Source: Candidatus Hermodarchaeota archaeon
GTDB taxonomy: Archaea > Asgardarchaeota > Heimdallarchaeia > Hodarchaeales > Hodarchaeaceae
Assembly: GCA_048886185.1 (NCBI GenBank)
Contig: JBHLKY010000027.1
Location: 1-32,000 of the forward strand
DNA length: 32,000 nt
Direction of reading: 5' to 3'
Under the pieces are notes generated by a model. It searched no databases. It was not told the origin of the DNA and saw only the letters and a list, made by a program, of their open reading frames with translations. The translations under genes and the position numbers were made by a program. This document shows, piece by piece, positions 1,945 through 21,295 of this stretch; positions within the stretch are counted from its first letter, which is position 1, and every line of letters starts with the position of its first letter.

Positions 1945-2198
1945 GATCAATGGGTAAATTAAAATTTTAGTGTGTTATTATTGAAAGGAAAGGAATTTAA
2001 TCCTTTTTTTAATGTCTTTAATCAAAATAGAAAAGGATTTACTTATCATTAAAACTATTAAGGAATCTGATATCAAGCTAGCGGCCATAAAATAATTATT
2101 CTAATTTAATGTCTGTTATCCTTACAATCCTTTTTGGCATTCAACTAGACGGAAACAAACAAGTTCTACAAATATGGAATCCGTTTTAGGGATAACTT

Positions 2199-3782
2199 AT
2201 GGATCGTAATGAGAAGAAATTTATCTCAGAAATGAATGAATATTCATATCAGAGGCTTCAAAAAACCGAAAAGGTAGGATATGGAAGAAATGGCTATGTA
2301 GAAAAAAACAATCATATAATAGAATTATCTATTTCTAATTTAAAACTAGAATATGTCCCAGAAAGCATAGAAAATTTAAAGGATTTAAATATTCTTTATA
2401 TGGGAGGAAATTCTCTTATTAAAATACCAGATTCAATCTTGACACTAAGGAATTTAGAAGTTCTAGAAGCTTGGCAAAACAGAATTGAATCAATCCCCAA
2501 AGATATTGGGATTCTAGATAAAGTCTGGCGATTACATCTTGCAGGGAATAAAATTACTAGCCTTCCTGAAAGTATCGGTAATCTGCCAATGAAGAAACTG
2601 TATCTTAAACATAATAATGTTAGTTATGTTCCTAAAAGTATTGGAAACTGGACACGTCTCGATGTTTTTGGTTTACCTCTTAACAACCTTCGATCACTAC
2701 CAGATACAATAAATGGCTGGAAAAATGTGCGAGTAATCTCGGTCTGGCAGAATAAGTTGAAAGAGTTACCAAATGTTCGCCTTAACGTTAAAGAATTACG
2801 CCTAAATAATAATTTTTTTACGGAAGTCCCTCCTCGGGTGTACGAGATTCAACAATTAAAGAAGCTGTGGTTGAATAGTAATCAATTAACAGAATTTCCT
2901 GAAATTCCTAAGGGAAATCTTCAAAATCTATGGTTTCTAAATTTACAGAACAACCTCCTCTCTTCATTACCAAAATCAATTCAAGGGTTACCTAATCTTC
3001 GGGACTTGAGACTCTCAGGTAATCTATTTAAGTCGTATCCAAACTGGTTAGATTCTCTGAAAGGTTGTAAAATAGATAAATCGGTTCATAAACAGCAGCA
3101 ACAACAGCCCGATTATATTGGAGTCAAGAAATATGTGAAATATCTCGAAGATAATCATTTACCAATGGAACACCTAGTAGAGATTAAACACTTTCAGAGA
3201 TACCTCGAAAATGAGAAAGGTTTCTCCAGAATTGTGAAAGCGAAAGCAAATGATATTAGAGATTATATTACAGATACAAAAATTACCGCCTTTGCCTTGA
3301 GATCCTTGTATCTATATTTCTCTTGGCTTCAGGATTACCCACTACGTCGAATTATCAAAGAAGAATTAGAAAATTACGCTCATTTAATGAGTATCAATCT
3401 TCAAGATGTCAAAAGGCTTATAGAGGAATCGCTTGCTGTTACTTCATTATTGGCATTGGATAGACCAGAAGAAAAATCGCCCCCCATTGTTATCCGACCA
3501 AAATCACTTGAACAGAAAACGGAAGGAGACGAATGGGAATCTTTCATGACAAAACTAGATCAGATTTCCTTAAACACTTTAAAAATCTTATTAAAATCTT
3601 CAAAACCTAAAATTGCTCTTGAAAAATATGCTAACAGTCAAAACAGACTTCCAGAAACCCTTCTTGAGTCCATTAACGAGATATCTTTAGAATCCATTGG
3701 TGACATAATTCTTGATCAAGAGACCTGTCAGATAACAGAAACTAATTATAAAGAAAAATTAAGTAAAATCTTATTTACGTGA
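2199..3782 (+). CDS. Leucine-rich-repeat protein with a central helical (integrase core-binding-like) domain and a C-terminal TerB_C-like domain
   Basis: About 11 LxxLxLxxNxL/I-xxLP repeats (~2340-3050) and a QQQQQP linker. The C-terminus DEWESF..KL...LPETLLESINEISLESIGDIILD (3528-3779) aligns with the C-terminus of the next ORF. Confidence 0.85.
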   Translation: MDRNEKKFISEMNEYSYQRLQKTEKVGYGRNGYVEKNNHIIELSISNLKLEYVPESIENLKDLNILYMGGNSLIKIPDSILTLRNLEVLEAWQNRIESIPKDIGILDKVWRLHLAGNKITSLPESIGNLPMKKLYLKHNNVSYVPKSIGNWTRLDVFGLPLNNLRSLPDTINGWKNVRVISVWQNKLKELPNVRLNVKELRLNNNFFTEVPPRVYEIQQLKKLWLNSNQLTEFPEIPKGNLQNLWFLNLQNNLLSSLPKSIQGLPNLRDLRLSGNLFKSYPNWLDSLKGCKIDKSVHKQQQQQPDYIGVKKYVKYLEDNHLPMEHLVEIKHFQRYLENEKGFSRIVKAKANDIRDYITDTKITAFALRSLYLYFSWLQDYPLRRIIKEELENYAHLMSINLQDVKRLIEESLAVTSLLALDRPEEKSPPIVIRPKSLEQKTEGDEWESFMTKLDQISLNTLKILLKSSKPKIALEKYANSQNRLPETLLESINEISLESIGDIILDQETCQITETNYKEKLSKILFT

Positions 3783-4078
3783 GGGAAATTCGAATAATCT
3801 TTAAGTATAATTATCTCATCTTATGAGTATGTTATAAACTAATATAAATGACTTCTCATCCAAAATTTAATCATGAATGCCAATTAACAACTGTTTTCAA
3901 ATTCTAGATACTGTTTGAAGTCATTCTGATATTGACTAAGGTGTGTAATAAAATTATAAACACTCAATTGTACTATCATCTTATTGGATAAATCATCTCT
4001 CTCTGAACCTGAACAACTTAAATAAACGAGTTGAGAGGATATGAATAGTCTGATGAGTTTTACAGAAGGCATCGTTCG

Positions 4079-7000
4079 ATGTCAACAATAATAAGAATCG
4101 TTGCAATGGATAGCAGGTATAATAACCAAATACTAGAAGAATTTTCCCTAGCTATACCAAAAAGGTTTGCAAATATTTCCCCTGTAGGGATGAAAACGGT
4201 AATTATTGCTTGTCAAGGAAGTTACACCCCCAAAATCGGAGATTATATTACTTTTAAGCTTTCTTCTGAAAGCTCTTTACTCTATAGTGAATCTCCAGCT
4301 GATTTGTATGCTCAGATTAATAGAACCCTATCATCAGAGAGGTTATTATCAACTGATATTACACAAGAAGAACTAAAATCAATCCTCCAAGGATCTCCAA
4401 AAGAAATTGATTATTGGGTAGTAGCATCAGTTCTGGGTTTCACTATTCCAGGACGAAAAAAGATTTTGATACCGGAAGGCTCTCTCTTAGGAAATCTAGG
4501 GAAGATCCCTAATCCTGAATCCATTATAATTTTCCTAAACCAATATATGGAATCTCTATTTTACACATTCCCCCTTAAACTAATAAATTATCTGGTTTAT
4601 AACTCGATTCAAGGGAGTAAGTTTTGTCAAAGTGGGAATATCCAGATATTAGAAAAAATTTTACCAAATATCCTGAAAAACGTCAATCAGCACTTTTTAA
4701 AGGTTGAAAATAAAGGACTTCTTGAAATATTTTCACCACAAATGAATTTCAGCATTACAGATTATACTGCGAATATTGATGATATTAAACAGGAATATAT
4801 TGATTGGCTTGCTTCAAATGAGCCACTTGTGGATTTAGTATCAGATATACTGAAATATACTGAAAAAAAATTAAGTTTAATCTTGAAGTATCATGGGAAA
4901 GTAGAAATTAATCCAAGACCACTTTCAGGTCATATCAAGAATATAGTACAAACAGAACTACAGAGATATGAAGGGGAATTACAACCAAAAAGGGAGGTGA
5001 TGCGAAAAAAACCAGCTTTTGCAGAATTTGAAATAAGTTTCACCACTAAAAAATACATCAAAACATCAATCAAAGACCAAGAAGTAATACCTAAGATTAG
5101 GGATAGAAAACAAATTTTCACTAAAGCAAATATAAGTCATGAAAATATCACTGAGCTTGAGTCCAGAATGAAGCTCGCTGCTCAATCTCTGGATTTTAAG
5201 AAAGCATCAATAATTCGGGGGAAAATTGAGGAGTTAAAGAGAAATCGGAACAATAGAAAAGCCAATAAGTATTTTTCGGAGTTTAAAACAGCCCCAGCTG
5301 AGAAACTTCCTAAAATCCCTAAGTTTGTATCATTTGATCAATATTGGCCTACCTTGGACACACTGAATGAGGATCAAAGAAAATGGTATGATTATTGGGT
5401 TTCAGAAATCGAGAATGGACATTATTATCCCACCGATTTGTCATATATTTTCCTATATATCTATCAAGCACTTGATTATGAAGATAAGGAAAAAGGTTAT
5501 CGTATATTACGAGATTTATGGATCCATTATCGAAGAGAACATCCTAGACTTGATCGTTACTTAATTGATTGGTTAACAGACTATATCCTCCTTCACAATT
5601 GTCATTATGATCAAAGGACTATAAATAGGGAATTATTCAAATTTCACTCACAATACACACTTGAATGTCTAGATTCAATACTAACATTGTTTCCTCCCCG
5701 CTCGTTTAGAGAAATGCCAATAGAATGGATCAATATTCTCGCAAATAATAGCATAATAAGTAGTTCATTTTATTCATCGAAATCATCCGTCATAAATGAA
5801 ATAATTCCTGAAGTGCTGGATGCAATCGATAGATATTATCATGAGAATGAAAGCATTAGCTTATTAGAGAAATTTAAACCCGATAAAGTTGGACGATTCG
5901 TTTTTAATCGTGCCCTCAAAAATGAAAGTTATCTTACAAAGACTATTGAAGTTTTCCCTTACACGAAATCTCTACCTCTTCTAATTTTCATTTCTGAGGT
6001 TGTAAACACAACAGAAAATAAATTACGTAAGTATTTTCGATTTCCAGCCCTTCCGCATATCAGCATACTTGAAAGAGAAATTGAAAATGTCATTGAAATG
6101 ACATTTACGAAATTTATCAGTGAGTTAAGCCTATCAGAACAAGAAATAGATTTACCATTCATTGATGCAGCGCAAAAATATGTCAATAGGGTAGAAGATG
6201 AAGCTAAACCTGTTCCTCTATACCAATTTCAACCAAATTACCAAGATATGACAAAAGCTCAATTACAGTGGTACTTTTATTGGCGTAACCAGGTTAGGAG
6301 GGGAAATTTTCTCTCAGCTCAGATTGGGTATGTTATGTTGTATATCTATGAAATTATTAATGACATAGGAATCGAAAATCATCAGGAGGGATATAAACGA
6401 TTATTGGCTATCTGGGAATATTACCGTATTGAGAATCCCGAATTGGATGAATATTTACCTGAATGGATTGTGGAATATGCAATTCTAAAAGAGATATCAA
6501 TTGATGGTATAGAAGAACTCTATCGTAATATCTTGAAACGATTAGATGGAAGAGAACAGAGAGACCTTCGATATGAATTAACTGAACTTCTAATTTCTCA
6601 GTATCATCATGAAGCTTTTAACAAAATCCCAATCAAAATGATTTATGAGCTCGTGAGATATTTAAGTTTTCCTCCCTATACCCGATTAAATGACTCTGTT
6701 CGAACCACAATGGATCAACACGTTAGTATTATTTTAAATGAAGTGAACACATACTATTTACAAAAATATAGCAAATCATTACTAGAATTCCATCATCCCT
6801 CTAAAAAAAGGAGAATCCCCTTTGTCCTTGCTCGCTATTTCGGTGAGGTCGATATATTAGAGGTAAAAAGTTATTCACGGCAGTTCTTAAATTTTCTAGA
6901 TAATACAATAAAATATATTCACAATCGTTTTCGTGATATCGAGTTAGATACAACTAAAACCCGATTAAAGGCTGAAATTCCTGATCCTGAAGTTGAAGCA

Positions 7001-7528
7001 ATAATTGATTATTATTTCATCGACAACTTAAATGCCACAAACATCACCCCTAAATATTCTAAACTAGCTTTACAGGTACAAAGTGGTAATCTAGGTGTAG
7101 ATCAAACTAAAATAAAAATATTAACCAAAGAATCTGATGAAATTCAAACACTGCTAACAAATTCGGATATATATAAATTTGAATTGGAAGAATCAATAGG
7201 AGATTTAGAAGAGGATCGAGGAGAAATTGAAGTAAACATTAATCAAGAATCTGCTCAAGAAGAAACAATCGAATTAGATGAGTGGGAGTTATTCAAATCA
7301 AAACTGAATGATATTCAACTGAAGTTTTTAAAGTCACTATTATTCAGTGAAAATCCTAAAGAACAATTAGATCAGATTGCTGAACAAACAGGGACCTTAC
7401 CAGAAACAATCATAGAGTCTATTAATGAAATTGCGATCGAGGTCATTGACGATATAATTATTGATAGTGAATTGCTTAACGTTATTGACGAATATCTAGA
7501 TAAAATCAAGTCAATTCTTAAGATATGA
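4079..7528 (+). CDS. Large TerB_N/TerB_C-domain protein (unknown N-terminus, UVR motif, two TerB_N, acidic linker, TerB_C)
   Basis: TerB_N-type motifs FDQYWPTLDTLNEDQRKWYDYW...SYIFLYIYQ (from 5333) and YQFQPNYQDMTKAQLQWYFYWR...GYVMLYIYEIIN (from 6218). TerB_C-type motif DEWELF...LPETIIESINEIAIEVIDDIIID (from 7277). UvrB/C-type motif LESRMKLAAQSLDFKKASIIRGKIEEL (5147-5239). Confidence 0.85.
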   Translation: MSTIIRIVAMDSRYNNQILEEFSLAIPKRFANISPVGMKTVIIACQGSYTPKIGDYITFKLSSESSLLYSESPADLYAQINRTLSSERLLSTDITQEELKSILQGSPKEIDYWVVASVLGFTIPGRKKILIPEGSLLGNLGKIPNPESIIIFLNQYMESLFYTFPLKLINYLVYNSIQGSKFCQSGNIQILEKILPNILKNVNQHFLKVENKGLLEIFSPQMNFSITDYTANIDDIKQEYIDWLASNEPLVDLVSDILKYTEKKLSLILKYHGKVEINPRPLSGHIKNIVQTELQRYEGELQPKREVMRKKPAFAEFEISFTTKKYIKTSIKDQEVIPKIRDRKQIFTKANISHENITELESRMKLAAQSLDFKKASIIRGKIEELKRNRNNRKANKYFSEFKTAPAEKLPKIPKFVSFDQYWPTLDTLNEDQRKWYDYWVSEIENGHYYPTDLSYIFLYIYQALDYEDKEKGYRILRDLWIHYRREHPRLDRYLIDWLTDYILLHNCHYDQRTINRELFKFHSQYTLECLDSILTLFPPRSFREMPIEWINILANNSIISSSFYSSKSSVINEIIPEVLDAIDRYYHENESISLLEKFKPDKVGRFVFNRALKNESYLTKTIEVFPYTKSLPLLIFISEVVNTTENKLRKYFRFPALPHISILEREIENVIEMTFTKFISELSLSEQEIDLPFIDAAQKYVNRVEDEAKPVPLYQFQPNYQDMTKAQLQWYFYWRNQVRRGNFLSAQIGYVMLYIYEIINDIGIENHQEGYKRLLAIWEYYRIENPELDEYLPEWIVEYAILKEISIDGIEELYRNILKRLDGREQRDLRYELTELLISQYHHEAFNKIPIKMIYELVRYLSFPPYTRLNDSVRTTMDQHVSIILNEVNTYYLQKYSKSLLEFHHPSKKRRIPFVLARYFGEVDILEVKSYSRQFLNFLDNTIKYIHNRFRDIELDTTKTRLKAEIPDPEVEAIIDYYFIDNLNATNITPKYSKLALQVQSGNLGVDQTKIKILTKESDEIQTLLTNSDIYKFELEESIGDLEEDRGEIEVNINQESAQEETIELDEWELFKSKLNDIQLKFLKSLLFSENPKEQLDQIAEQTGTLPETIIESINEIAIEVIDDIIIDSELLNVIDEYLDKIKSILKI

Positions 7529-8889
7529 TTGTAGATGAGATACTAGGACGAAACAGAAGAATGTCAAAGAGAAGAATCCCTCAACGTGTTTCAGCAATAA
7601 TACTAAAATCTTTGAATGCTGGAGTGGTACCTCGTATAGGTTTAGAACACATAGCTGTAGGCCGAAAAGAGGAAATAGAATCATTATTAGAAGATCTGGA
7701 AAACATTGAAGTTGGTAGTGCAGCTTTTAGGTTTTTTATTGGACGATACGGATCTGGCAAAAGTTTCCTGATTCAACTTCTAAGAAATTATGCCATGGAT
7801 CGTGATTTCGTGGTGGCTGATGTAGATTTATCCCCCGCAAGACGATTCATTGGGAGTGGAAGTAAAGGAGTCGCAACATATCGTGAACTCATCACAAATA
7901 TGTCCACAAAAACACGACCTAGTGGGGGAGCATTAACAGCAATTTTAGAAAAATGGATCTCCAAAATTCAATCCATGGTGATTACTGAAAAAGGAATCAA
8001 ACCTGGTGATCCTGTTTTTGTTGATCTGGTGGAAACAGAGATAATCAATGCGGTTAACAACATAAAAGATCTTGTTCATGGTTTTGACTTTGCTATCGTT
8101 ATCTCAACGTACTGGCGGGGCCATAAACTAGGTGAGGAAGAGACAAAAGAAAATGCCCTTAGATGGTTACGAGGGGAATATACAACAAAAACAGAGGCAC
8201 GAAATGCCTTAGGTGTCAATATCATTGTTGATGATGACTCTTGGTATGATTATATCAAATTACTAGCACGATTTGTCACAGAAATTGGATATAAAGGACT
8301 TTTAGTCTTTTTTGATGAAGCAGTCAATTTGTATAAAATCACTCATACTCAATCGAGGACTAATAATTATGAAAAATTGTTGACAATGTATAATGATACC
8401 ATGCAAGGAAAGGCAGAGTATCTCGGAATTTTCGTAGGTGGTACTCCTCAATTTCTCGAAGATAGACGAAGAGGCCTCTATAGTTATGAGGCACTTCATT
8501 CCCGACTTGTTGGAAGTCGATTTACTAAAAATGGATTGCGTGACATATCAGGTCCTATTATCAAACTTGAACGGTTGACTCTGGAAGAGATTTTTGTTTT
8601 ATTAACTCGTGTTATGAATATTCATGCTCTTCACTACAAGTACAACCCTTTTTTGTCAAATGATGAACTTCAAGAATTTATTAAAGTAATAGTTAGTCGT
8701 ATTGGAGCTGATAAACTCCTTACTCCTCGAGAATTTGTTCGAGAGTTCATTATCCTATTGAATATCTTACGGAAAAATCCTGAACAATCTTTCTTAGGAA
8801 TAATTCAAGGAGAAGACTTCAAACCACAAGCCCCGAGTCAAATAGATGAATCAGTAAAAGGAACGGAGTTTGAGGAATTTAAATTATGA
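7525..8889 (+). CDS. DUF2791 / BrxD-type P-loop (AAA+) ATPase
   Basis: N-terminal SLNAGVVPRIGLEHIAVGRKEE, Walker A GRYGSGKS, Walker B LLVFFDEA, and 'LRWLRGE' and 'TPREF' motifs typical of the family. ATGA overlap with the upstream gene; an alternative ATG lies at 7561. Confidence 0.9.
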   Translation: MIVDEILGRNRRMSKRRIPQRVSAIILKSLNAGVVPRIGLEHIAVGRKEEIESLLEDLENIEVGSAAFRFFIGRYGSGKSFLIQLLRNYAMDRDFVVADVDLSPARRFIGSGSKGVATYRELITNMSTKTRPSGGALTAILEKWISKIQSMVITEKGIKPGDPVFVDLVETEIINAVNNIKDLVHGFDFAIVISTYWRGHKLGEEETKENALRWLRGEYTTKTEARNALGVNIIVDDDSWYDYIKLLARFVTEIGYKGLLVFFDEAVNLYKITHTQSRTNNYEKLLTMYNDTMQGKAEYLGIFVGGTPQFLEDRRRGLYSYEALHSRLVGSRFTKNGLRDISGPIIKLERLTLEEIFVLLTRVMNIHALHYKYNPFLSNDELQEFIKVIVSRIGADKLLTPREFVREFIILLNILRKNPEQSFLGIIQGEDFKPQAPSQIDESVKGTEFEEFKL

Positions 8890-11120
8890 GTGATACGATT
8901 TTTAACCGTTTTCCTGCATTCATTCAAGAATGGATTTACTCTCATGGGTGGGAAGAATTACGTGATATTCAAATAGCTTCTGCTCAAGCCATATTTAATA
9001 CAACAGCACATATCCTATTAGCAACTGGTACTGCTAGTGGAAAGACTGAAGCAGCTTTCTTACCTGCTTTGACACTAATTCATGAAGATCCCCCCGCGAG
9101 TATTGGAATACTTTACATCTCACCTTTAAAAGCTCTCATTAACGACCAATTTAATAGGATAGAAGAATTGCTAGAGGAGGCAGAGATCTCAGCTTGGCCA
9201 TGGCATGGTGATATTCCTCGAAATCTTAAAAGAAAATTAATAGAAAATCCTAGTGGTGTTCTTCAAATAACGCCCGAATCTATGGAAAGCTTGTTGATTA
9301 ATAGACACCAAGAATTACGTAGGATGTTTGGTGATCTTCGATTTGTGATCATAGACGAAGTACATGTCTTCATGAATGAAGAGCGGGGAACTCAAATCTT
9401 ATGTCAATTAGAACGTCTTGGAACAATCATTGGATTTCATCCCCGTCGCATCGGTCTTTCGGCAACTTTGAGCGATTATAGCTCAGCAGAAAAATGGTTA
9501 AGTTCAGGAACAAACCTTCCAGTGATTACTCCAAAAGTACAAGGATTAATCAAACGAATAAGATTAGCTGTTGAGAATTTCATCAATCCCAATCCTAATC
9601 CTTCTGGAATAATGCAATATGGTGAGGGTGGTGAATTAGTTGCTCCTACTTCAGAACCCTCCTCTGAACCTTATCCCTCAAGTCAGTACTTATTTGATCA
9701 AACACTGAATCGGCAATGTTTGATTTTTACTAATACTCGGGAAAGAGCTGAAAGTACAATTAATAGCCTAAGAGCAATAGCTAATCAGAAAGGATACCCA
9801 AATCGGTACTATGTTCATCATGGAAGTATTTCTGCGACCCTTAGAGAAGAAGCAGAGACAATCATGAAAACAGGAGACATTCCTTCAGTAACTGCATGTT
9901 CAGTTACTTTAGAATTAGGTATTGATATTGGATCATTGGAAAGGATTATCCAAATTGGTTCTCCACGAACTGTATCTTCGTTTCTCCAAAGATTAGGAAG
10001 ATCCGGTAGAAAAGAAGCAGATGTCTCTGAAATTCTTTTTATTCATTCTGAAGAAGAACCATCAGATAATAAACCACTTCCCTATCTTATCCCTTGGGAA
10101 TTAATACAATCTATTGCAATCATTAATTTATACTTAGAAGAACGTTGGATTGAACCAATCCAAGAATTAAAATCCCCATTTAGTTTGTTATATCACCAAA
10201 CAATGTCCTCTCTAGCTTCAGCGGGTGAACTCTCTCCACAGACTCTAGCCCAGCGCGTATTATCCTTAACACCATTTAAACACGTTACTCAAGATGATTA
10301 TCGGATTCTTATTCAATATCTTATTGAATTAAACCATATCGAGCAGATTGAAGATGGTGGACTGATAATTGGTTTAGATGGTGAACGAGTTGTACGCAAC
10401 TATCGGTTCTATGCTGTTTTTCCTGATGTCGTAGAGTGGACGGTAAAGGAAACAGAAGAATTTGATGAAATAGGTAAAATTGGGCAATTATTTCTTCCTG
10501 GTGATCGGTTTCCCTTAGCTGGTTATACTTGGGAAGTTAAAGAGATTTATCCAGAACAGAAAATAATTATAGCTTCAAAAGTGGGCGGTCGAACGCGCTA
10601 CTTCTGGCCAGGAGGTATCGCCCCTGTGCATACTAAAGTCCTTCAACATATGCGAAAAATCCTATTTGAAGACAAATTTTATCCTTATTTACAACCAGGT
10701 GCCATTGAACGAATTCAACAGGTTAGAATGCTTGCTTCTGAAGTAGAGATGGATAAGAGAGCTCTGTTTCAACTTGCTGGACATAAATTTGTTCTTCTCC
10801 CTTGGGCTGGATCGACTTCATTTCGTACAATTAGAAGAATTCTAGAATTACATTCTGAAGAATTAGGAATAAGAAATATAAGTGAACAGGCTCCATATTT
10901 TTTCTTATTTGAAGCTGAAGATCAATCAAGAGAGAGTCTTGAATCAGAGATTAAGAACTTATGTGAAAGTATTAGATCATCCGCTGAGCTCATCAAAGAG
11001 GATGAGATCTTCCTTTGGCGGAAATTTGATCAATATATTCCTACAAAACTCCAGCAAAAGACGTTAATGGATGATTATTTGGATTTGGAAGAGTTAAGAG
11101 AAATTATTAAGAGCTGGTGA
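8886..11120 (+). CDS. Lhr-like SF2 DEAH-box helicase (BrxHI-type), copy 1
   Basis: Motif I TASGKT, Ia SPLKALINDQ, II DEVH, III SAT, V TLELGIDIG, VI QRLGRSGR, plus a winged-helix region. ATGA overlap at 8886-8889. Confidence 0.93.
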   Translation: MSDTIFNRFPAFIQEWIYSHGWEELRDIQIASAQAIFNTTAHILLATGTASGKTEAAFLPALTLIHEDPPASIGILYISPLKALINDQFNRIEELLEEAEISAWPWHGDIPRNLKRKLIENPSGVLQITPESMESLLINRHQELRRMFGDLRFVIIDEVHVFMNEERGTQILCQLERLGTIIGFHPRRIGLSATLSDYSSAEKWLSSGTNLPVITPKVQGLIKRIRLAVENFINPNPNPSGIMQYGEGGELVAPTSEPSSEPYPSSQYLFDQTLNRQCLIFTNTRERAESTINSLRAIANQKGYPNRYYVHHGSISATLREEAETIMKTGDIPSVTACSVTLELGIDIGSLERIIQIGSPRTVSSFLQRLGRSGRKEADVSEILFIHSEEEPSDNKPLPYLIPWELIQSIAIINLYLEERWIEPIQELKSPFSLLYHQTMSSLASAGELSPQTLAQRVLSLTPFKHVTQDDYRILIQYLIELNHIEQIEDGGLIIGLDGERVVRNYRFYAVFPDVVEWTVKETEEFDEIGKIGQLFLPGDRFPLAGYTWEVKEIYPEQKIIIASKVGGRTRYFWPGGIAPVHTKVLQHMRKILFEDKFYPYLQPGAIERIQQVRMLASEVEMDKRALFQLAGHKFVLLPWAGSTSFRTIRRILELHSEELGIRNISEQAPYFFLFEAEDQSRESLESEIKNLCESIRSSAELIKEDEIFLWRKFDQYIPTKLQQKTLMDDYLDLEELREIIKSW

Positions 11121-13399
11121 GGGGTTTGGCCTCAGATCAATTCTATCGACTTGCTCCATGGATTCAGGAGTGGATTTATCGACAACAATGGGAGGAATTT
11201 AGACCAGTTCAAGAAGAAGCGTGTAAAGTTATTTTCGATACTCCTCACCATCTCCTATTGGCAACTGGGACAGCTAGTGGGAAAACCGAGGCTGCATTAT
11301 TTCCAATCTTGACTTTATTAGATGAAAATCCTTCTATGAGTGTAGGTGTTTTATATATTGGACCACTAAAAGCGCTTATCAATGATCAGTTCCAGCGAGT
11401 GGAGGATCTTCTCCAAGAGGCAGATATCCATGTTTGGCGATGGCACGGAGATGTTCCTCAGAGTCATAAGGCCAAATTAGTACGTAATCCAAGTGGGATA
11501 CTGCAAATCACCCCGGAATCGTTAGAGAGCCTCTTGATCAATCGGACGACTGATTTAAGCAAGCTCTTTGGTGATTTACGATTTATAATTATTGATGAAG
11601 TTCATGCATTTATGCCTCAATTTTCTGATAGAGGGAGGCAAGTTATTTGTCAACTTGAACGTCTACAAGGCTACATAAATAAAATTCCACGAAGAGTGGG
11701 CCTGTCTGCTACGCTTGGAGACTACTCATACGCAGAACAGTGGCTTGCTTCAGGCACTAATTTTCCTGTTGTAACTCCGATTATAGAGGAACCAACGAAA
11801 AAACTTAGGCTTGGTATTGAACATTTTACTGAAACAACATGGCATCGAGCAAAGATGAAAGGGCAACCTCCAGCACGTGGACTAGACCTACCATCACATA
11901 GATGGATCTTTGATTTGACATTAGGAAGGAAATGTATAATATTCCAGAATGATAGAGAAAGAACTGAGCTCGTGACTCATGGGTTAAGAGAAATTGCTAA
12001 ATCGAAAGGTTTACCAGATGTGTATCATTCTCACCATTCATGTATTGCAGGACTCCTTAGAGAGGATGCAGAGGAGTTTTTGAAAGAAAAGAATGGAGAT
12101 CCCCATATTGTCGCTGCAACAATGACACTAGAATTAGGTATTGATATTTCTGATGTTGAACGAATTATTCATATTGATAGCCCACATGCTGTATCAACTT
12201 TTGTGCAACGATTGGGAAGATCAGGGAGGATAAATAACGCCTCCGAGATGTTCTTTGCTATTTCAGAGAATCCTAAAACCGCTCACACCCCCCTTGCATA
12301 TCAACTTCCTTGGCGATTGTTACAGGCTATAGGTCTTGTCCAACTCTATCTTGATGAGCGGTGGATTGAACCTGCTCTTCCACTTAAGAAACCATTCTCG
12401 ATTTTATTCCATCAAACTATGTCAATTCTAGCTTCAGCTGGTGAACTCTCTCCTCAAGCGCTAGCCAAAAGAGTGTTGTCTCTGAGTCCATTTAAGAATA
12501 TTTCTATGTATGAGTTTCGTGCCTTACTCAATCACCTGATCAAAAATGAATTCATCGAGCAGATTCAAGAGGGTGGGTTAATTATTGGACTTGCAGGTGA
12601 GAAAATTGTCCGTAACTACCGGTTTTTCGCAGTCTTTCGCGATTACGCTGTTGATTACTCCATTAAGGAGGGAACCCTTGAAATTGGACATATTGACCAA
12701 CTTCTAGAACCAGGTGATCAATTATTAATTGGGGGGTATCCCTATCGTATAACTCAAGTTTACCCCAAACAAAAGGTTATGCAAGCTGAAAAAATAGCTG
12801 AAAAACCATTTTATGTGTGGCCAGGGAGATTGGCTCCCGTTCATACCAGAGTTCTTCAACGAATGCGGCGCTCTCTCTTTGAAGATCAAAGCTATTCATT
12901 TCTTCAGAGGGATGCCCGAATTCGACTTGAGGAGGGACGCTTATTTGCAAAAGCACAGCAATTAGACAAAAAGGTCTTATTGCAAGAGTCAAGAAACAGA
13001 TATAGTTTACTACCGTGGATGGGATCCACATCATTCAGAACACTTGTGCGTATATTGAAATTTCTGGGTTCCGACACTTTAGGTATCAATTGGTTACAGC
13101 CTGAACCTGTTACGACAACTGAACCCCACCTTCCAGTCCATGTAATCCAATTTGAAACTAATAGTTATAATAACGTTAATTCTCTTTATATGGATTTGTA
13201 CAATCTCGTAGAAAGTGTTACTGAGAAAGACTTACATCAACTCTATGAGCAAACTGAAAAGTTCATTTATGAACGCTACCATCATTTACTTCCTATAGAA
13301 TTGCAACGGGAGGTTTTAGTTCATAACTATCTAGACCTCAAGGAGGTTAAACACATTATTCGTACGTGGGAGGATTACTCCGTTTATTGGCAAAATTGA
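11117..13399 (+). CDS. Lhr-like SF2 DEAH-box helicase (BrxHI-type), copy 2
   Basis: Same motifs (TASGKT, PLKALINDQ, DEVH, SAT, TLELGIDI, QRLGRSGR) and collinear with copy 1 over its full length. GTG start overlaps the TGA of copy 1 (GTGA 11117-11120). Confidence 0.92.
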   Translation: MRGLASDQFYRLAPWIQEWIYRQQWEEFRPVQEEACKVIFDTPHHLLLATGTASGKTEAALFPILTLLDENPSMSVGVLYIGPLKALINDQFQRVEDLLQEADIHVWRWHGDVPQSHKAKLVRNPSGILQITPESLESLLINRTTDLSKLFGDLRFIIIDEVHAFMPQFSDRGRQVICQLERLQGYINKIPRRVGLSATLGDYSYAEQWLASGTNFPVVTPIIEEPTKKLRLGIEHFTETTWHRAKMKGQPPARGLDLPSHRWIFDLTLGRKCIIFQNDRERTELVTHGLREIAKSKGLPDVYHSHHSCIAGLLREDAEEFLKEKNGDPHIVAATMTLELGIDISDVERIIHIDSPHAVSTFVQRLGRSGRINNASEMFFAISENPKTAHTPLAYQLPWRLLQAIGLVQLYLDERWIEPALPLKKPFSILFHQTMSILASAGELSPQALAKRVLSLSPFKNISMYEFRALLNHLIKNEFIEQIQEGGLIIGLAGEKIVRNYRFFAVFRDYAVDYSIKEGTLEIGHIDQLLEPGDQLLIGGYPYRITQVYPKQKVMQAEKIAEKPFYVWPGRLAPVHTRVLQRMRRSLFEDQSYSFLQRDARIRLEEGRLFAKAQQLDKKVLLQESRNRYSLLPWMGSTSFRTLVRILKFLGSDTLGINWLQPEPVTTTEPHLPVHVIQFETNSYNNVNSLYMDLYNLVESVTEKDLHQLYEQTEKFIYERYHHLLPIELQREVLVHNYLDLKEVKHIIRTWEDYSVYWQN

Positions 13400-13415
13400 T
13401 AGTTGATTTTATGTG

Positions 13416-14420
13416 ATGAAAACAAAAGCAGTAATCAATAAATTATTGGCTTCAAAGGATCCAGCCATTCAATTAAAGGTGCATCTACGCTTATTAGGAA
13501 ATGATTATAAGAGTCGTGAAGTTCAAAAAATTGCATCAATAATCAAGGAAAGGTCACCTGTAGTATCAGGATTATTTAATGCCCTCTCAGCTCAAGAAAA
13601 GTTATTTAAAATTAGAAAAGTTGGAGAGGGTCGTGTTTATAAAAAATGGGAGGGAATTCATTGGGTTTTGGCGGACTTGGCGGATATCGGTTATCCCCCA
13701 GGAGATCAAACATTACTAACAAGCATAAAGCTTGAGTTAAATTGGTTATTAAGTAAGAAGCGTTGGGCAAGCAAGAAAACAATTAATAATCGCAGAAGAT
13801 TCTGTGCTTCTCAAGAAGGAAATGGATTATTTTCAATTATTTCATTAGGACTTGCCGAATATGTATGGGAGGCATGTACAACACTCGCAGATCGTTTAAT
13901 TACCTATCAATGGGAAGATGGAGGATGGAATTGCGATGTACGGCCTGAGGCAATAAATTCATCTTATCATGAAAGTGCTATTCCACTAAGAGCATTGAAT
14001 ATCTTTGAAAGAAAAACAAACGATCAAGTAGCAAGAAAAGCAATTGATCAGGCGTCAGAATTGTTTCTCAAAAGACAATTCTATAAAAGAAGGAGTACCA
14101 ACAAAATTATTGATAAACAATGGACAAAATTATCATATCCTTCATATTGGATGTATAATATTTTATTTGGATTAAAAGTGATTGCTGAATGTGGGAAAGT
14201 TAAAGATCACCGTTGTAAAGAAGCGTTAAAATTACTTGAATCCAAAGAACTCACCGAGGGGGGATTTCCAGCAGAAAAAAGGAATTTTTTTAGAAATAAG
14301 AGGTCTCGTTATTCTCCAGTCGATTGGGGAGAGGTGAATAAAAAGAAAATGAATGAATGGGTTACAATTGACGCGTTATACATCTTAAAAGAAGCAAATA
14401 GGATAGATGTGGAAATATAA
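13416..14420 (+). CDS. Uncharacterised alpha/alpha-toroid (prenyltransferase/squalene-cyclase-repeat-like) protein
   Basis: QW-like repeats (YQWEDGGWNC, KELTEGGFPAE) and 'YKKW.G.HWVLA.LADIGYPPGD'. The ATG at 13416 is preferred over the GTG at 13413. Confidence 0.6.
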   Translation: MKTKAVINKLLASKDPAIQLKVHLRLLGNDYKSREVQKIASIIKERSPVVSGLFNALSAQEKLFKIRKVGEGRVYKKWEGIHWVLADLADIGYPPGDQTLLTSIKLELNWLLSKKRWASKKTINNRRRFCASQEGNGLFSIISLGLAEYVWEACTTLADRLITYQWEDGGWNCDVRPEAINSSYHESAIPLRALNIFERKTNDQVARKAIDQASELFLKRQFYKRRSTNKIIDKQWTKLSYPSYWMYNILFGLKVIAECGKVKDHRCKEALKLLESKELTEGGFPAEKRNFFRNKRSRYSPVDWGEVNKKKMNEWVTIDALYILKEANRIDVEI

Positions 14421-14442: not shown

Positions 14443-15717
14443 TCATGTTATTCTTTTAAGTTTTTCTAATACTATATTATATGCGTTTCTTTCTAACTCT
14501 TCAAGTAAAGTGCTTTTCTCATTTAGGAAAATATCAATGATATAGGGATGAGCGGCTTGAGGAATGTTAAGTGCCCTAAATTTGCTTTTATCTAGTTTAA
14601 AAACATCTTGTGGATGTTGTTCAAGAAAACTCACTGCTTTGTTTAATTGATATGTTTCACTGGAGGATTGCTCACGAATAATGCATGACTTAATGTAGGC
14701 AGCCCTAAGCAATATTTCAGCAAGTCGGAGATTATTCTCAACCCGTCCAAGAGGGATATATCGTTTTGATGCATATGGAAGATTGAGTTCATGGTTATAT
14801 TTGAACGCTTTTATCTCTGGATAGATAAGATTGAGCTTTTTTAACTGAAAGTGATCTAATGTTCCATATTTATTGTTGTTTCCATATAATTGTCGATATT
14901 TAGATAAAAGATGAGGATAATGTTTTTGGATTGTACGGAAAAAACTTACTTTATTTCTACCAGGTTTGAGGGTTAATGACCAAACATACACAAATTCAGC
15001 ATCTACTTCTTTAGCTTTTTGAAAGATAGCTTTCATATTTTCGTCTGTATCGCCAATAAATGGCAAAGGGGGGTAAAAATATATCCCTGAATGAATTCCT
15101 TCTTCTCTTAGTTTCTTTATTGCGTATAAACGCTCTGATGTTGGACTGGCTCGGGGTTCAAAGATTTGTTGAGCTTGTTCATCCATTAAAGTAATACTGA
15201 AGTTTACTGCAACAAAATTACTCTCATTTATCTTTTTTAATATATCTAAATCTCTTAAAACAAGGGTACTCTTTGTTAATATTTGTATAGGAACATTATA
15301 CATCTGGGCAAGGTGTAATAATGTACGAGTCATTTTAACCTGTTTCTCTGCTGGTTGGTAAACATCACATACTCCCCCTCCAATAAATAGAATGAATTTG
15401 GGTTTGGGGTACTTTTTTGATCCTCTTAATTGTAAATGGGAGTCTAATGTAGAAGAGTGATAAGTTGAATATAATCCCTGCTTTTTCAAAAATCGTTCAA
15501 GCAAGTGGGGGGCATTCTTTTTGACACGAATTCGATCACCAAAATCCTCATGCATATGATAAACTTCAGATTTTCCATCACAATACTGACAATCGTGATA
15601 GCATCCTTGATAAGGATTGAGGTAGTGTTCAGACCAAGAAAAGAGTGATGGTGAGCTCTTCCGCATCAAACTTTTGGCATTATACTCTTCTATGATCATA
15701 TAGCACTCACGTGTCAA
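14443..15717 (-). CDS. Radical SAM protein, SplB/spore-photoproduct-lyase-like family, with a C-terminal helical extension
   Basis: LNPYQGCYHDCQYC (CxxxCxxC), DVYQPAE, ILTKS..VLRDLD and FEPRA...ER motifs. The true start may be the second Met (MIIEE). Confidence 0.85.
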   Translation of the reverse strand: MTRECYMIIEEYNAKSLMRKSSPSLFSWSEHYLNPYQGCYHDCQYCDGKSEVYHMHEDFGDRIRVKKNAPHLLERFLKKQGLYSTYHSSTLDSHLQLRGSKKYPKPKFILFIGGGVCDVYQPAEKQVKMTRTLLHLAQMYNVPIQILTKSTLVLRDLDILKKINESNFVAVNFSITLMDEQAQQIFEPRASPTSERLYAIKKLREEGIHSGIYFYPPLPFIGDTDENMKAIFQKAKEVDAEFVYVWSLTLKPGRNKVSFFRTIQKHYPHLLSKYRQLYGNNNKYGTLDHFQLKKLNLIYPEIKAFKYNHELNLPYASKRYIPLGRVENNLRLAEILLRAAYIKSCIIREQSSSETYQLNKAVSFLEQHPQDVFKLDKSKFRALNIPQAAHPYIIDIFLNEKSTLLEELERNAYNIVLEKLKRIT

Positions 15718-15763
15718 TTAATTATAGTCAACGAGAATCAAAATCTTGAGTATTTCTATACTT

Positions 15764-16456
15764 TTAACTCCAGATCAAAATTTCAGAGAGAGATTTTCTT
15801 TTTATATCTGGTACTTCAACATTTTCCTTGGGATATCCAACAGGCATAATTACAAATGCTTTCTCGTTTTCAGGCCGACCTAAGAGATCTCGTAGAAAAT
15901 TCATGCTGATGGGGGTATGTGTTAATGTTGCCAAGCCTGCGTTATGGATGGCTAGAATTAGCATTCCGACAGCAATTCCAACGCTTTTTATTACATAATA
16001 ATTCTTTCTTTTTTTATTATTTTCATCAAGATGGTATTTTTGCTGAAAAACTACAATCAAATAAGGAGCTATTTCGAGAAATGGTTTTTCCCAACTAGTA
16101 CCTAAAGGAACCAAGTCTTGACGCCATTCATCTGAAATTTTGTGTTCATAAAACTCCTTTTCTTCTAATTCTGCAGCTAATCGGATCTTACGTTTCAGAT
16201 CAGAGTTACTTACAATCACAAATGTCCAAGGTTGCTTATTGGCACCTGATGGAGCTGTCCCAGCAGTTCTAATAATATATTCAATTATAATTCGAGGAAT
16301 AGGCTTATCAGAAAAGTTTCGTATTGATCTTCGAGAATTGACAAAATCATACATTTCAATAGATCTTTTAATCATTTCATCTTCAGTATAAGTGTGAAGG
16401 TGAAAAGGAATAGAGGCATACTTTTTTACCATTGAACTCAACTTTGCTTGATACAA
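15764..16456 (-). CDS. iyd: Nitroreductase superfamily, iodotyrosine deiodinase (IYD)-like
   Basis: RRSIRNF, TAPSGANKQPW, lid region AAELEEKEFY...W..DL..LGT.WEKPFLE.AP, AGLATLTHTP, PVGYP. Confidence 0.8.
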   Translation of the reverse strand: MYQAKLSSMVKKYASIPFHLHTYTEDEMIKRSIEMYDFVNSRRSIRNFSDKPIPRIIIEYIIRTAGTAPSGANKQPWTFVIVSNSDLKRKIRLAAELEEKEFYEHKISDEWRQDLVPLGTSWEKPFLEIAPYLIVVFQQKYHLDENNKKRKNYYVIKSVGIAVGMLILAIHNAGLATLTHTPISMNFLRDLLGRPENEKAFVIMPVGYPKENVEVPDIKRKSLSEILIWS

Positions 16457-16549: not shown

Positions 16550-17272
16550 GTGTACCTGCTTTTATATGTGTTTACAGTGAAGGTAGATAAGTCTGCTAGT
16601 ACTCTCACTAGCATGTTTAACTCATTAGCAAGGTACTATGACCTCATGAACGATGTAATGACCTTTTTTACTCATAGACATACAAAAGAAATTGCAGCAC
16701 AACTATCTGGCTTCAAAGTAAATGAACGGGCTTTAGATCTTGCAACTGGTACAGGAGATCTAGCATTATTATTACGTAAAAAGTCTCAGGGGACTGTTAT
16801 TGGAACTGATCTATCTGAAAAAATGTTGTCAATTGCAATTAAAAAATCACAAACCATAGAAAAAGAAATATCATTTGCTCTAGCAGATATTAATAATCTA
16901 CCATTCTCAGATGAAACTTTCGATGTGTGCATGATTGGTTTTGGGATTCGTAACGTCCACAACCCATTAAACACCATGAAAGAAGTGGCCCGTATCACAA
17001 AAAATAGAGGCCGATTTGTGATCCTAGAAGCCACTCCTCCTACCAATTGTTATGTGAGATTTCTTGGTTTATTCTATTTCAGAAAATTAGCTCCACTATT
17101 AGCAAAAGCATTTTTATTAAATTCAAAAGCCTATAATTACCTGGCAGAGAGTATTTCACAATTCCCAAAAGCTTCAGATTTCTCGAAAATAATTAAACAG
17201 GCCGGTTGGAAAAGAGTTTATTATTATCCATTATATTTAGGACTCGTTACGATTTTCTTAGCTATCAAATGA
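16550..17272 (+). CDS. ubiE: UbiE/MenG-family SAM-dependent (demethylmenaquinone) methyltransferase
   Basis: YDLMNDVMTF, SAM motif LDLATGTGDLA, DLSEKML, LPFSDETFD, FGIRNV, AYNYLAESI..FP. The start codon is uncertain (GTG). Confidence 0.85.
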   Translation: MYLLLYVFTVKVDKSASTLTSMFNSLARYYDLMNDVMTFFTHRHTKEIAAQLSGFKVNERALDLATGTGDLALLLRKKSQGTVIGTDLSEKMLSIAIKKSQTIEKEISFALADINNLPFSDETFDVCMIGFGIRNVHNPLNTMKEVARITKNRGRFVILEATPPTNCYVRFLGLFYFRKLAPLLAKAFLLNSKAYNYLAESISQFPKASDFSKIIKQAGWKRVYYYPLYLGLVTIFLAIK

Positions 17273-19145: not shown

Positions 19146-20141
19146 TTGAAATTGTACAAAAGAAAGTTTGGTAAGAGTAACATTACAGTTAGTGCCATTG
19201 GAATGGGTTGTTTTGCCATCGGAGGCCCATTTAAAGGTAAAAATGGAAATTTCTTCGCATATGGTTCTGTAGATGATGAAGAATCAAAAAGAGTAATTCA
19301 TAAAGCAATTGAGTTAGGAGTGAATTTTTTCGATACTGCTGATATATATGGATTTGGACGCTCAGAACGAATCTTAGGATCAGTTCTCTCTGAATACAAT
19401 CGCAATGATATGGTGATTGCAACAAAATTTGCCAACGAATTCGATGAAGTTAAAAAAATTTCCATTGGAAAGAATGTTGATCCTGATTACATCCGTAAAG
19501 CGCTAGAGGCAAGTTGTAAAAGATTGCAAACTGACTTTATTGATCTATATCAGCTCCATGACAGTGATCATGATATTGAAAACGCAAAGAATGTTATGAA
19601 TACACTTGAGGATTTAGTTGCAGAGGGTCGAATAGGGGGTTATGGATGGAGTACCGATGACGTTGAGCGAGCTAAGGTTTTTGCAGAGGGAAAGAATTGT
19701 ACAGCTATTCAATACGCCATTCATATCACCCGAAACAATCCCAAAATGATTGAATTATGTGAAAAATATAATTTAGTCGGTGTCATCCGATCTCCACTAG
19801 GGAGTGGGACGTTAACAGGTAAGTACTCCAAAGAATATATGCAAAATTTAGACAAGAATCATATGTGGTATGGACGAGAATTTATCGCTGAAGAATGGTT
19901 TATTAAAAGACAGAAGAAACTAGAAGAGTTAAGTGAACTACTCAGTGGAGAGGATTTGACGTTAATTCAGGCGTTGTTGAGTTATTTATGGAGTACAAGT
20001 GAAACAACAGTTCCTATTCCAGGTGCTAAAACACTATCCCAAATCAAGGAAAATGCTGCAATACTAGAACTTGGTCCTTTAAAATCGGATTTATTACAGT
20101 CTATGACCAATATTTTTGAAGAAATTAGGACTTATGTTTAA
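19146..20141 (+). CDS. Aldo/keto reductase (copy 1)
   Basis: IGMGC, FDTADIYG, IATKF, IDLYQLH, SPLGSGTLTGKY, PIPGAK. TTG start (19146 or 19152). Confidence 0.93.
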   Translation: MKLYKRKFGKSNITVSAIGMGCFAIGGPFKGKNGNFFAYGSVDDEESKRVIHKAIELGVNFFDTADIYGFGRSERILGSVLSEYNRNDMVIATKFANEFDEVKKISIGKNVDPDYIRKALEASCKRLQTDFIDLYQLHDSDHDIENAKNVMNTLEDLVAEGRIGGYGWSTDDVERAKVFAEGKNCTAIQYAIHITRNNPKMIELCEKYNLVGVIRSPLGSGTLTGKYSKEYMQNLDKNHMWYGREFIAEEWFIKRQKKLEELSELLSGEDLTLIQALLSYLWSTSETTVPIPGAKTLSQIKENAAILELGPLKSDLLQSMTNIFEEIRTYV

Positions 20142-20190
20142 TCAGTGAAAACTAGACAATTAAACTCACTTTGAAAGGATAGATATTTAG

Positions 20191-21273: not shown

Positions 21274-21295
21274 TTATTGTTATGAAGGTTTTCAA

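Follow-up and report, generated by a model that had tools for sequence, protein, structure and literature searches.

The first 32,000 nucleotides (nt) of contig JBHLKY010000027.1 from Candidatus Hermodarchaeota archaeon (GenBank assembly GCA_048886185.1), referred to here as the window, contain five genes on the forward strand between positions 2199 and 13399 that very probably represent a module of the Shango defence family. These genes encode a leucine-rich-repeat (LRR) protein with a C-terminal TerB_C domain, a long TerB_N/TerB_C protein (SngA), a DUF2791 ATPase (SngB) and two Lhr-like helicases in tandem (SngC1 and SngC2) (Table 1). A first-pass annotation, made from the sequence alone, had described the locus as a five-gene elaboration of a TerB_N/TerB_C, DUF2791 ATPase and Lhr-like helicase core, and its coordinates and domains were confirmed using the list of open reading frames (ORFs) and Pfam. 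The source genome comprises 4.84 Mb in 75 contigs, of which the window represents contig 27. Homologues of the encoded proteins bear the names Candidatus Heimdallarchaeota, Hodarchaeales, Hodarchaeota or Promethearchaeota, in agreement with the Asgard host that had been envisaged. All DNA sequencing runs containing the locus are sediment metagenomes, and no RNA run was listed as containing it.

Table 1. Positions in the window of the five genes, their modules and the adjoining ORF
Feature	Length or residues (aa)	Position (nt)	Strand	Assignment
LRR-TerB_C protein	527	2199..3782	+	Accessory SngA paralogue
LRR-TerB_C: ~11 LRRs	1-295	2199-3083		
LRR-TerB_C: helical middle	309-396	3123-3386		
LRR-TerB_C: TerB_C module	404-527	3408-3779		SngA-type
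SngA (long)	1149	4079..7528	+	
SngA: M1 (middle)	134-297	4478-4969		
SngA: UVR motif	356-388	5144-5242		Pfam
SngA: TerB_N-1	401-520 (Pfam ~412-512)	5279-5638		
SngA: M2 (middle)	~543-686	5705-6136		
SngA: TerB_N-2	691-815 (Pfam ~694-811)	6149-6523		
SngA: M3 (middle)	816-990	6524-7048		
SngA: TerB_C	991-1149 (Pfam 993-1143)	7049-7525		
SngB	454	7525..8889	+	BrxD-like DUF2791 AAA+ ATPase; Pfam BrxC_BrxD/DUF2791 7.5e-165
SngC1	744	8886..11120	+	Lhr-like DExH helicase; PADLOC SngC 8.7e-226
SngC2	760	11117..13399	+	Second Lhr-like DExH helicase; PADLOC SngC 9.4e-211
ORF6	335	13413..14420	+	Starts 14 nt past the SngC2 stop

Overlapping start and stop codons were read directly in the sequence at positions 7525 (ATGA), 8886 (ATGA) and 11117 (GTGA). 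The 4-bp overlaps at 8886 and 11117 were found to be kept in orthologous loci, whereas that at 7525 hinges on the start codon assigned to SngB. In the SngB profile and in several orthologues, the protein starts at a methionine 13 codons downstream (ATG 7561), which is probably the conserved start; in that case, SngA and SngB may lie 33 nt apart instead of overlapping. A gap of 296 nt lies between the LRR gene and SngA.

The ratio of non-synonymous to synonymous substitution rates (dN/dS), calculated across six orthologous loci (dS ~1), ranged from 0.035 to 0.35 for the five genes. Since all five are under purifying selection, they represent real genes rather than chance ORFs. The slowest evolution was observed for SngB and the SngC helicases, and the fastest for the N-terminus of SngA and both TerB_C tails. 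As previously noted, none of the five genes showed a methyltransferase, PglZ or nuclease domain in Pfam, PADLOC and NCBIfam searches.

Assignment to the Shango family

PADLOC profiles matched the second gene as SngA (5.3e-89, residues 694-1147), the third as SngB (1.8e-187) and the last two as SngC (Table 1), with the BrxD (1.2e-50) and BrxHI (1e-114) profiles being the clear second-best matches to SngB and SngC, respectively. The BrxD/BrxHI identity initially proposed for the ATPase and the helicases was not retained, as these profiles match much less well. In addition to the PADLOC assignment, Pfam identified TerB_N (1.3e-40) and TerB_C (1.9e-09) domains in SngA. PF10923 was identified in SngB, in which Walker A and Walker B motifs are present, and the two Lhr-like DEAD/DEAH helicases were shown to possess intact motifs. 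The A-B-C genes adjoin or overlap on a single strand (4079-13399). At the sequence level, the locus thus displays every feature that defines Shango. Its core is already catalogued and standard tools would label the locus as Shango, a family validated in bacteria, so that it does not qualify as a novel defence system, as originally proposed. In neither TerB_C protein was the actual TerB domain (PF05099) matched, and TerB_N (PF13208) and TerB_C (PF15615) were the only matches at E ≤0.01-0.05.

Shango is a widespread system. In 2012, Anantharaman, Iyer and Aravind reportedly predicted an equivalent operon, which combines TerB_N/TerB_C proteins with an AAA+ ATPase and a superfamily 2 helicase. No mechanism for Shango is given in the literature searched, in which reviews repeat 'membrane surveillance', by analogy with TerB. 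Anti-phage activity of Shango was reported in Escherichia coli (Millman 2022; 10.1101/2022.05.11.491447) and in Pseudomonas aeruginosa PA14 (Johnson 2022/2023; 10.1101/2022.11.11.516204), and an enrichment of the system among Asgard genomes has been described (PMC11291487).

The E. coli and P. aeruginosa PA14 systems are composed of the same three families in the same order, and likewise lack a nuclease or methylase. In contrast to these systems, the locus described here resides in an archaeal host, includes a separate LRR-TerB_C subunit and encodes a tandem pair of SngC paralogues where those systems have a single SngC. Moreover, its SngA comprises 1149 aa, as compared with ~450-530 aa in bacteria, and features duplicates of the TerB_N and middle modules as well as a UVR motif. 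Type 2 bacteriophage exclusion (BREX; Pgl-type) systems encode homologues of SngB (BrxD) and SngC (BrxHI), but have no TerB_N/TerB_C partner, which this locus does have. Conversely, PglZ, the PglX methyltransferase, PglW and BrxA-C were absent from the scanned ORFs of the window, among which the sole methyltransferase is a UbiE/COQ5-type small-molecule enzyme (16550-17272).

Duplicated SngA modules and tandem SngC helicases

The length of canonical SngA given above is that of bacterial loci, the PADLOC profile being 528 positions long. Pairwise profile alignment of the two TerB_N domains of the long SngA yielded an hhalign probability of 99.9%, while the middle domain was found in three copies (M1, M2 and M3) that matched each other with probabilities of 97-98%. 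Judged from these alignments, the doubled length of SngA is due to internal duplication of its own modules (TerB_N and middle), together with the UVR coiled-coil motif. Across the protein, dN/dS was 0.08-0.11 for the TerB_N and middle modules, 0.18 for TerB_C and 0.28 for the N-terminus.

The N-terminal 400 aa of SngA were examined as a candidate cryptic enzyme or nuclease. An HMMER search among 1.84 billion cluster representatives retrieved just 12 relatives, and all ten that were scanned with Pfam proved to be TerB_N/TerB_C proteins, the matching stretch mostly lying between TerB_N and TerB_C. Apart from a sub-threshold BRCT_2 hint in Pfam, no enzymatic domain was indicated, and the ESM Atlas returned no usable match. 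A hidden effector in this region was rejected because residues 134-297 constitute the third copy of the middle domain and because the relatives are TerB_N/TerB_C proteins. Modules were assigned from residue 134 onwards.

SngC1 and SngC2 are 49% identical, and both contain the Pfam domains DEAD, Helicase_C and WH_Lhr. SngC1 matched the Lhr structure 5v9x in the Protein Data Bank (PDB) with an E-value of 1.1e-32. Motifs I, Ia, II (DEVH), III, V and VI were intact in 12 out of 12 Asgard SngC copies, and dN/dS was ~0.05 for each of the two genes. In a maximum-likelihood tree of 43 proteins, which was based on a quick search and includes some long branches, the 12 Asgard SngC proteins formed one clade (Shimodaira-Hasegawa-like approximate likelihood-ratio test support of 99) whose sister group is the single SngC of Nostocales, and the second-position copies formed a clade of their own (support of 100). 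SngC1 is the paralogue nearer to the single bacterial SngC, and SngC2 falls in the Asgard-only paralogue clade. All named SngC2 orthologues at ≥55% identity, i.e. nearer to SngC2 than SngC1 is, are from Asgard archaea.

Tandem SngC genes following SngB were also observed in a second genome of the same genus (G006; SngB 73% identical), in a member of another Asgard family (G282), in the Promethearchaeota metagenome-assembled genome GCA_048938655 (L122) and in GCA_016840025. In the bacterial sample, which consisted of the best 80 of >558 SngB loci (from Cyanobacteria, Lentisphaerota, Bacillota and Actinomycetota), neither two SngC genes nor a second TerB_C protein occurred at any of the 80 loci. 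The best reading of this distribution appears to be a single SngC duplication common to at least five Asgard lineages, with both motors retained in active form. An LRR-TerB_C orthologue was sought without success in the genomes of G006 and G282, and none lies upstream of SngA in GCA_048938655; the contig of GCA_016840025 begins inside the operon and is uninformative on this point. As judged from these sequences, the helicase duplication is older and more widespread than the LRR gene. Because two-helicase systems occur without the LRR gene, the additional sensor is not matched to the additional helicase.

Two of these loci deviate in their gene content. In GCA_048938655, a 205-aa gene without known identity and a gene for an M3-family oligopeptidase are located between SngA and SngB (L122:7205-9652), an arrangement also present on the independent Logan contig L120. 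In GCA_016840025, the second SngC is intact, but the first is broken into two ORFs (317 and 415 aa; L121:800-3004), owing either to decay of this copy or to faulty assembly.

The SngC proteins have the RecA1, RecA2, winged-helix and domain-4 core, together with the motifs, in common with Lhr-core helicases such as Mycobacterium smegmatis Lhr (PDB 5v9x and 7lhl). Unlike M. smegmatis Lhr, they possess their own C-terminal region of ~200 aa, are encoded in a defence operon and are duplicated here. As these relatives are repair enzymes (PMC10953399), the module could serve as a DNA- or RNA-processing stress or repair system in this archaeon instead of an antiviral one, with the LRR protein tethering it to a cellular partner. 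Such a role would fit the UVR motif of SngA, which also occurs in UvrB and UvrC, the very slow evolution of SngB and SngC, and the metabolic neighbours of the locus, including a radical S-adenosylmethionine (radical-SAM) gene of the Rv2578c/PA0069 family as a conserved convergent neighbour. This explanation is nevertheless judged quite unlikely, given that the SngB and SngC profiles scored far above any repair family, that all NCBIfam repair models remained well under their cut-offs and that homologous bacterial systems show anti-phage phenotypes. The distribution of the system is, furthermore, that of an accessory trait, since SngB was found in 8 out of 22 genomes of the genus and in 12 out of 400 Asgard genomes sampled. 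In members of the genus without the system, the flanking radical-SAM gene was merely 37-46% identical, indicating that these genomes are too divergent or that a paralogue was matched.

The LRR-TerB_C protein and its predicted docking on SngB

The first gene of the locus encodes a protein with Pfam matches to LRR_4, LRR_8 and LRR_14, as well as to TerB_C (3.3e-07). Its residues 312-523 were recognized by the PADLOC SngA profile (2.5e-13), and its tail aligned with the TerB_C domain of SngA with an hhalign probability of 99.4% (51% identity over 57 aa). Structure prediction using AlphaFold2 (AF2) gave predicted local distance difference test (pLDDT) values of 80-94 for the cytoplasmic LRR solenoid and <50 for the TerB_C tail alone, which was modelled as disordered. 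Foldseek matched the solenoid to Leptospira LRR proteins, SHOC2 and Roco LRRs. These proteins are cytoplasmic protein-binding scaffolds. The LRR region and the TerB_C tail displayed dN/dS values of 0.11 and 0.25, respectively.

A word-based search retrieved LRR-TerB_C homologues in 15 clusters, all with the same architecture (513-532 aa, 66-100% identical), and every cluster with a name is of Asgard origin. The gene appears to be confined to a single Hodarchaeales lineage. The order LRR-TerB_C, long SngA, SngB, SngC1 and SngC2 is repeated in G010, G008, G017 (where the contig end cuts the series) and GCA_048883125 (L123). In G003 and its metagenomic twin L124, the LRR gene is separated from SngA by an insertion of ~6 kb with three genes on the opposite strand, encoding an SBP_bac_5 protein, a helix-turn-helix protein and a beta-propeller protein. 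The operon was present within 6 kb of the LRR-TerB_C gene in all eight readable contexts, and on the short contig of the most divergent homologue a long gene on the forward strand lies directly downstream. The expected co-occurrence of LRR-TerB_C genes with the ATPase operon in other genomes was therefore observed wherever the context could be read. The 3.2-Mb 'single contig' of G015 (L015, G015:C1) is a concatenated scaffold with spacers of 100 N every few kilobases, and gene order across these gaps was consequently not taken as evidence on either the LRR gene or SngC2.

More generally, SngB was accompanied by a TerB_C ORF in 85 of 89 loci, irrespective of what lies N-terminal to TerB_C (a coiled coil, for instance, in Calothrix), and two such ORFs were present only in the five LRR-bearing loci. 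These observations argue against the LRR gene being an unrelated neighbour whose TerB_C-like tail arose by chance or is a relic. The 296-nt gap to SngA and the three unrelated genes intervening in G003 and L124 would be in keeping with a mere neighbour. That notion is, however, very improbable in view of the strong TerB_C homology, the purifying selection on the tail, the uniform architecture of the 15 clusters, the proximity of the operon in every context read, and a co-fold with SngB that passed its controls, as described below.

In SngB, the Walker A (GSGKS; G76-S77-G78-K79) and Walker B (DE; D264-E265) motifs were shown to be invariant in 29 homologues, and the gene exhibited the low dN/dS of 0.035. 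Its AF2 model (pLDDT of 85) yielded weak fold matches only, with template modelling (TM) scores of 0.24-0.38, to HslU, the RADAR ATPase RdrA, BrxC, ORC/Cdc6, TnsC and CED-4 (0.26 for the latter). A Pfam match to AAA_16 (0.0011; 19.9 bits) remained under the cut-off of 32.6 bits. The modelled fold is consistent with an oligomerizing AAA+ switch and lends no support to membership of the NACHT or NB-ARC families.

Co-folding of SngB with residues 296-527 of the LRR protein, using alignments of 29 and 15 rows, respectively, resulted in interaction prediction scores from aligned errors (ipSAE) of 0.71, 0.67 and 0.67, as compared with 0.00, 0.00 and 0.01 for three controls. Among solved complexes, 58 of 80 attain the ipSAE mark applied, as do 2 of 110 mismatched pairs; these counts are rough because own alignments were used. 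Contact agreement was ≥66% and partner pLDDT ≥73. Neither SngA nor SngB has sequence relatives in the PDB, which makes it unlikely that the prediction merely reproduces a solved structure. The TerB_C tail, disordered when modelled alone, was modelled with confidence in the complex with SngB.

On the side of the LRR protein, the predicted interface involves residues 390-420 and 475-508, which include a helix (residues 482-494; L-P-E-T-L-L-E-S-I-N-E) shared with SngA that is the best-conserved TerB_C stretch among 63 family members. On the side of SngB, it involves residues 138-149, a helix (A-I-L-E-K-W-I) that is nearly invariant in the 29 homologues and conserved to such a degree that it was used as the search pattern for the SngB family. 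In both families, the helices at the interface are thus the best-conserved segments. Taken together, the models and the co-occurrence data support a role for TerB_C in connecting a variable N-terminal portion with SngB.

The reading favoured here, to which we assign a probability of roughly 0.6, is that the LRR protein is a genuine Shango subunit that docks on SngB through its TerB_C domain and adds an input to the system, with SngB coupling sensing to both translocases, thereby blocking the invader without a nuclease. In such a scheme, the BrxD-like AAA+ ATPase SngB would act as the hub and TerB_C as the adaptor by which a sensor subunit is docked on it, using the same helix segment in SngA and the LRR protein. 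The part N-terminal to TerB_C would be an exchangeable input, represented by the TerB_N arrays in SngA and by the LRRs in the accessory protein. The latter would thus provide a second input to the same ATPase-helicase engine, most likely responding to a conserved protein ligand of either viral or host origin. Switching in an ATP-dependent manner, SngB would place the two Lhr-type 3'-5' translocases on invading DNA or RNA:DNA intermediates, or release them, so that replication or transcription of the invader would be blocked without a dedicated nuclease. SngC1 and SngC2 would probably share this labour, for instance by attending to different strands or substrates or by acting as a heterodimer.

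Several observations weigh against this reading. The co-folding results support docking but do not prove it. Anti-virus activity is shown for the bacterial (E. coli and P. aeruginosa) Shango systems alone, and for none from archaea. The locus is surrounded by metabolic genes rather than by a defence island, and the carrier genomes, with ~92% SngB identity, suggest vertical inheritance. The existence of two-helicase systems that lack the LRR gene is a further such point. Finally, the LRR region is conserved rather than diversifying (82% identity, with the low dN/dS given above), which would fit a fixed ligand or host partner better than a sensor engaged in an arms race. The first-pass annotation was correct as to the presence of the LRRs, while the pattern-recognition role it attributed to them is weakened by this conservation.

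The shared helix at the predicted interface also allows for an opposite role, namely that of a negative regulator or decoy, by which the LRR-TerB_C protein holds the docking site of SngB and keeps the engine off or sequestered until it is displaced or its host ligand is lost, in the manner of a guard. Docking through a conserved TerB_C helix that is also present in SngA implies competition between the two proteins, the strong conservation of the LRRs is as expected for binding of a host protein, and a fold of the SHOC2/Roco type is typical of host-signalling scaffolds. This alternative is considered unlikely, as competition is not directly evidenced and SngB, given its AAA+ fold, is probably oligomeric, so that both subunits could bind simultaneously. 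Moreover, two-helicase Shango occurs without such a protein in other Asgard lineages, and none of the sampled bacterial loci encodes one.

If the LRR protein is indeed a docked subunit, a second subunit that has kept only the TerB_C tail offers a handle on Shango architecture, leading from sensor via TerB_C adaptor and SngB hub to the SngC motors, and its ligand could reveal what Shango senses. A bolder and more tentative proposal, which we regard as possible though doubtful, is that Shango is a plug-in platform in which TerB_C serves as a universal SngB docking tag, two sensors (the multi-TerB_N SngA and the LRR protein) feed one ATPase and an obligate SngC1-SngC2 heteropair, and the LRRs bind a conserved Asgard-virus or host protein.

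TerB_C proteins adjacent to SngB were also observed in settings without a SngC helicase. In Calothrix sp. NIES-2100 (L042:6999-11329), a coiled-coil TerB_C protein lacking TerB_N precedes SngB in a unit with a DUF815 AAA ATPase and with no helicase nearby, and ~40 other Nostocales loci (L039-L105) encode SngB without SngC within 10 kb; possibly, these constitute a distinct, undescribed module. In the Asgard genome G129 (L030:6851-17617), a 578-aa TerB_C protein and an SngB homologue (50% identical) occur without SngC, followed on the opposite strand by genes for a protein resembling the C-terminus of Mu transposase, a 704-aa protein without assignment and a 1136-aa SNF2/DUF3670 helicase.

Immune-receptor comparison and flanking genes

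The combination of a repeat sensor, a P-loop switch ATPase and an effector is similar in its logic to that of NLR (nucleotide-binding LRR) and STAND (signal transduction ATPases with numerous domains) receptors, which comprise eukaryotic NLRs, bacterial Avs and bNACHT, and LRRs are also the sensor type of eukaryotic NLRs. Unlike in these receptors, the LRR protein has no NTPase domain, sensor and ATPase being located on separate polypeptides. Furthermore, SngB is a DUF2791/BrxD AAA+ ATPase rather than a STAND NTPase, and two helicases serve as the effector. The locus had been suggested to be relevant to immune architecture of a eukaryote-like kind. This suggestion finds no support here, since SngB does not belong to the NACHT or NB-ARC families and the LRRs are of the generic SHOC2/Roco/Leptospira type; the locus provides no evidence for common descent with NLR/STAND receptors or for the origin of eukaryotic LRR immunity. 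If the plug-in arrangement were true, it would represent a split, trans-acting analogue of receptors that combine LRRs with a switch ATPase, found in the closest prokaryotic relatives of eukaryotes.

Tandem-helicase Shango, an internally duplicated SngA and a trans-acting LRR-TerB_C protein were not found described in the literature searched, which consisted mostly of sources other than subscription journals. The Shango core is known; what is new here is the tandem-helicase form (Asgard-restricted in the samples analysed), the duplicated SngA and the LRR-TerB_C subunit. These features document an Asgard-specific evolution of a defence system known elsewhere from bacteria, in a detail beyond that of surveys counting Shango in Asgard genomes.

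ORF6, which follows SngC2, was considered as a possible sixth component of the system. It has no match in Pfam, PADLOC or NCBIfam, and its predicted fold resembles ESM Atlas clusters of the alpha/alpha-toroid prenyltransferase, terpene cyclase and SQHop_cyclase (squalene-hopene-cyclase) type, with TM scores of 0.8-0.9. The gene is present in the window, in G010, in G014 and probably in L123, and is absent from G003 and G008. In view of its absence from two orthologous loci and its prenyltransferase/terpene-cyclase-like fold, this candidate was rejected, and ORF6 is probably a neighbour outside the system.

In the region 14443-16456 (reverse strand), the Rv2578c/PA0069-family radical-SAM gene converges on the end of the operon, an orientation found without exception in L014, L031, L123 and L124 as well. 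A nitroreductase gene is located downstream of the radical-SAM gene in the window and upstream of the LRR gene in these other loci; since its position differs between loci, the operon has been rearranged relative to its flanks. A scan for promoters and terminators, which is not applicable to archaea, produced matches at chance level. The G+C content climbs steadily along the operon (2001-13000) from 0.32 at the LRR gene and SngA to 0.41 at SngC2, and drops again to 0.32-0.36 downstream. Further along the window (19146-22297, forward strand), three aldo/keto-reductase paralogues are encoded in a row, followed by a glyoxalase-family gene and a major facilitator superfamily (MFS) transporter gene.

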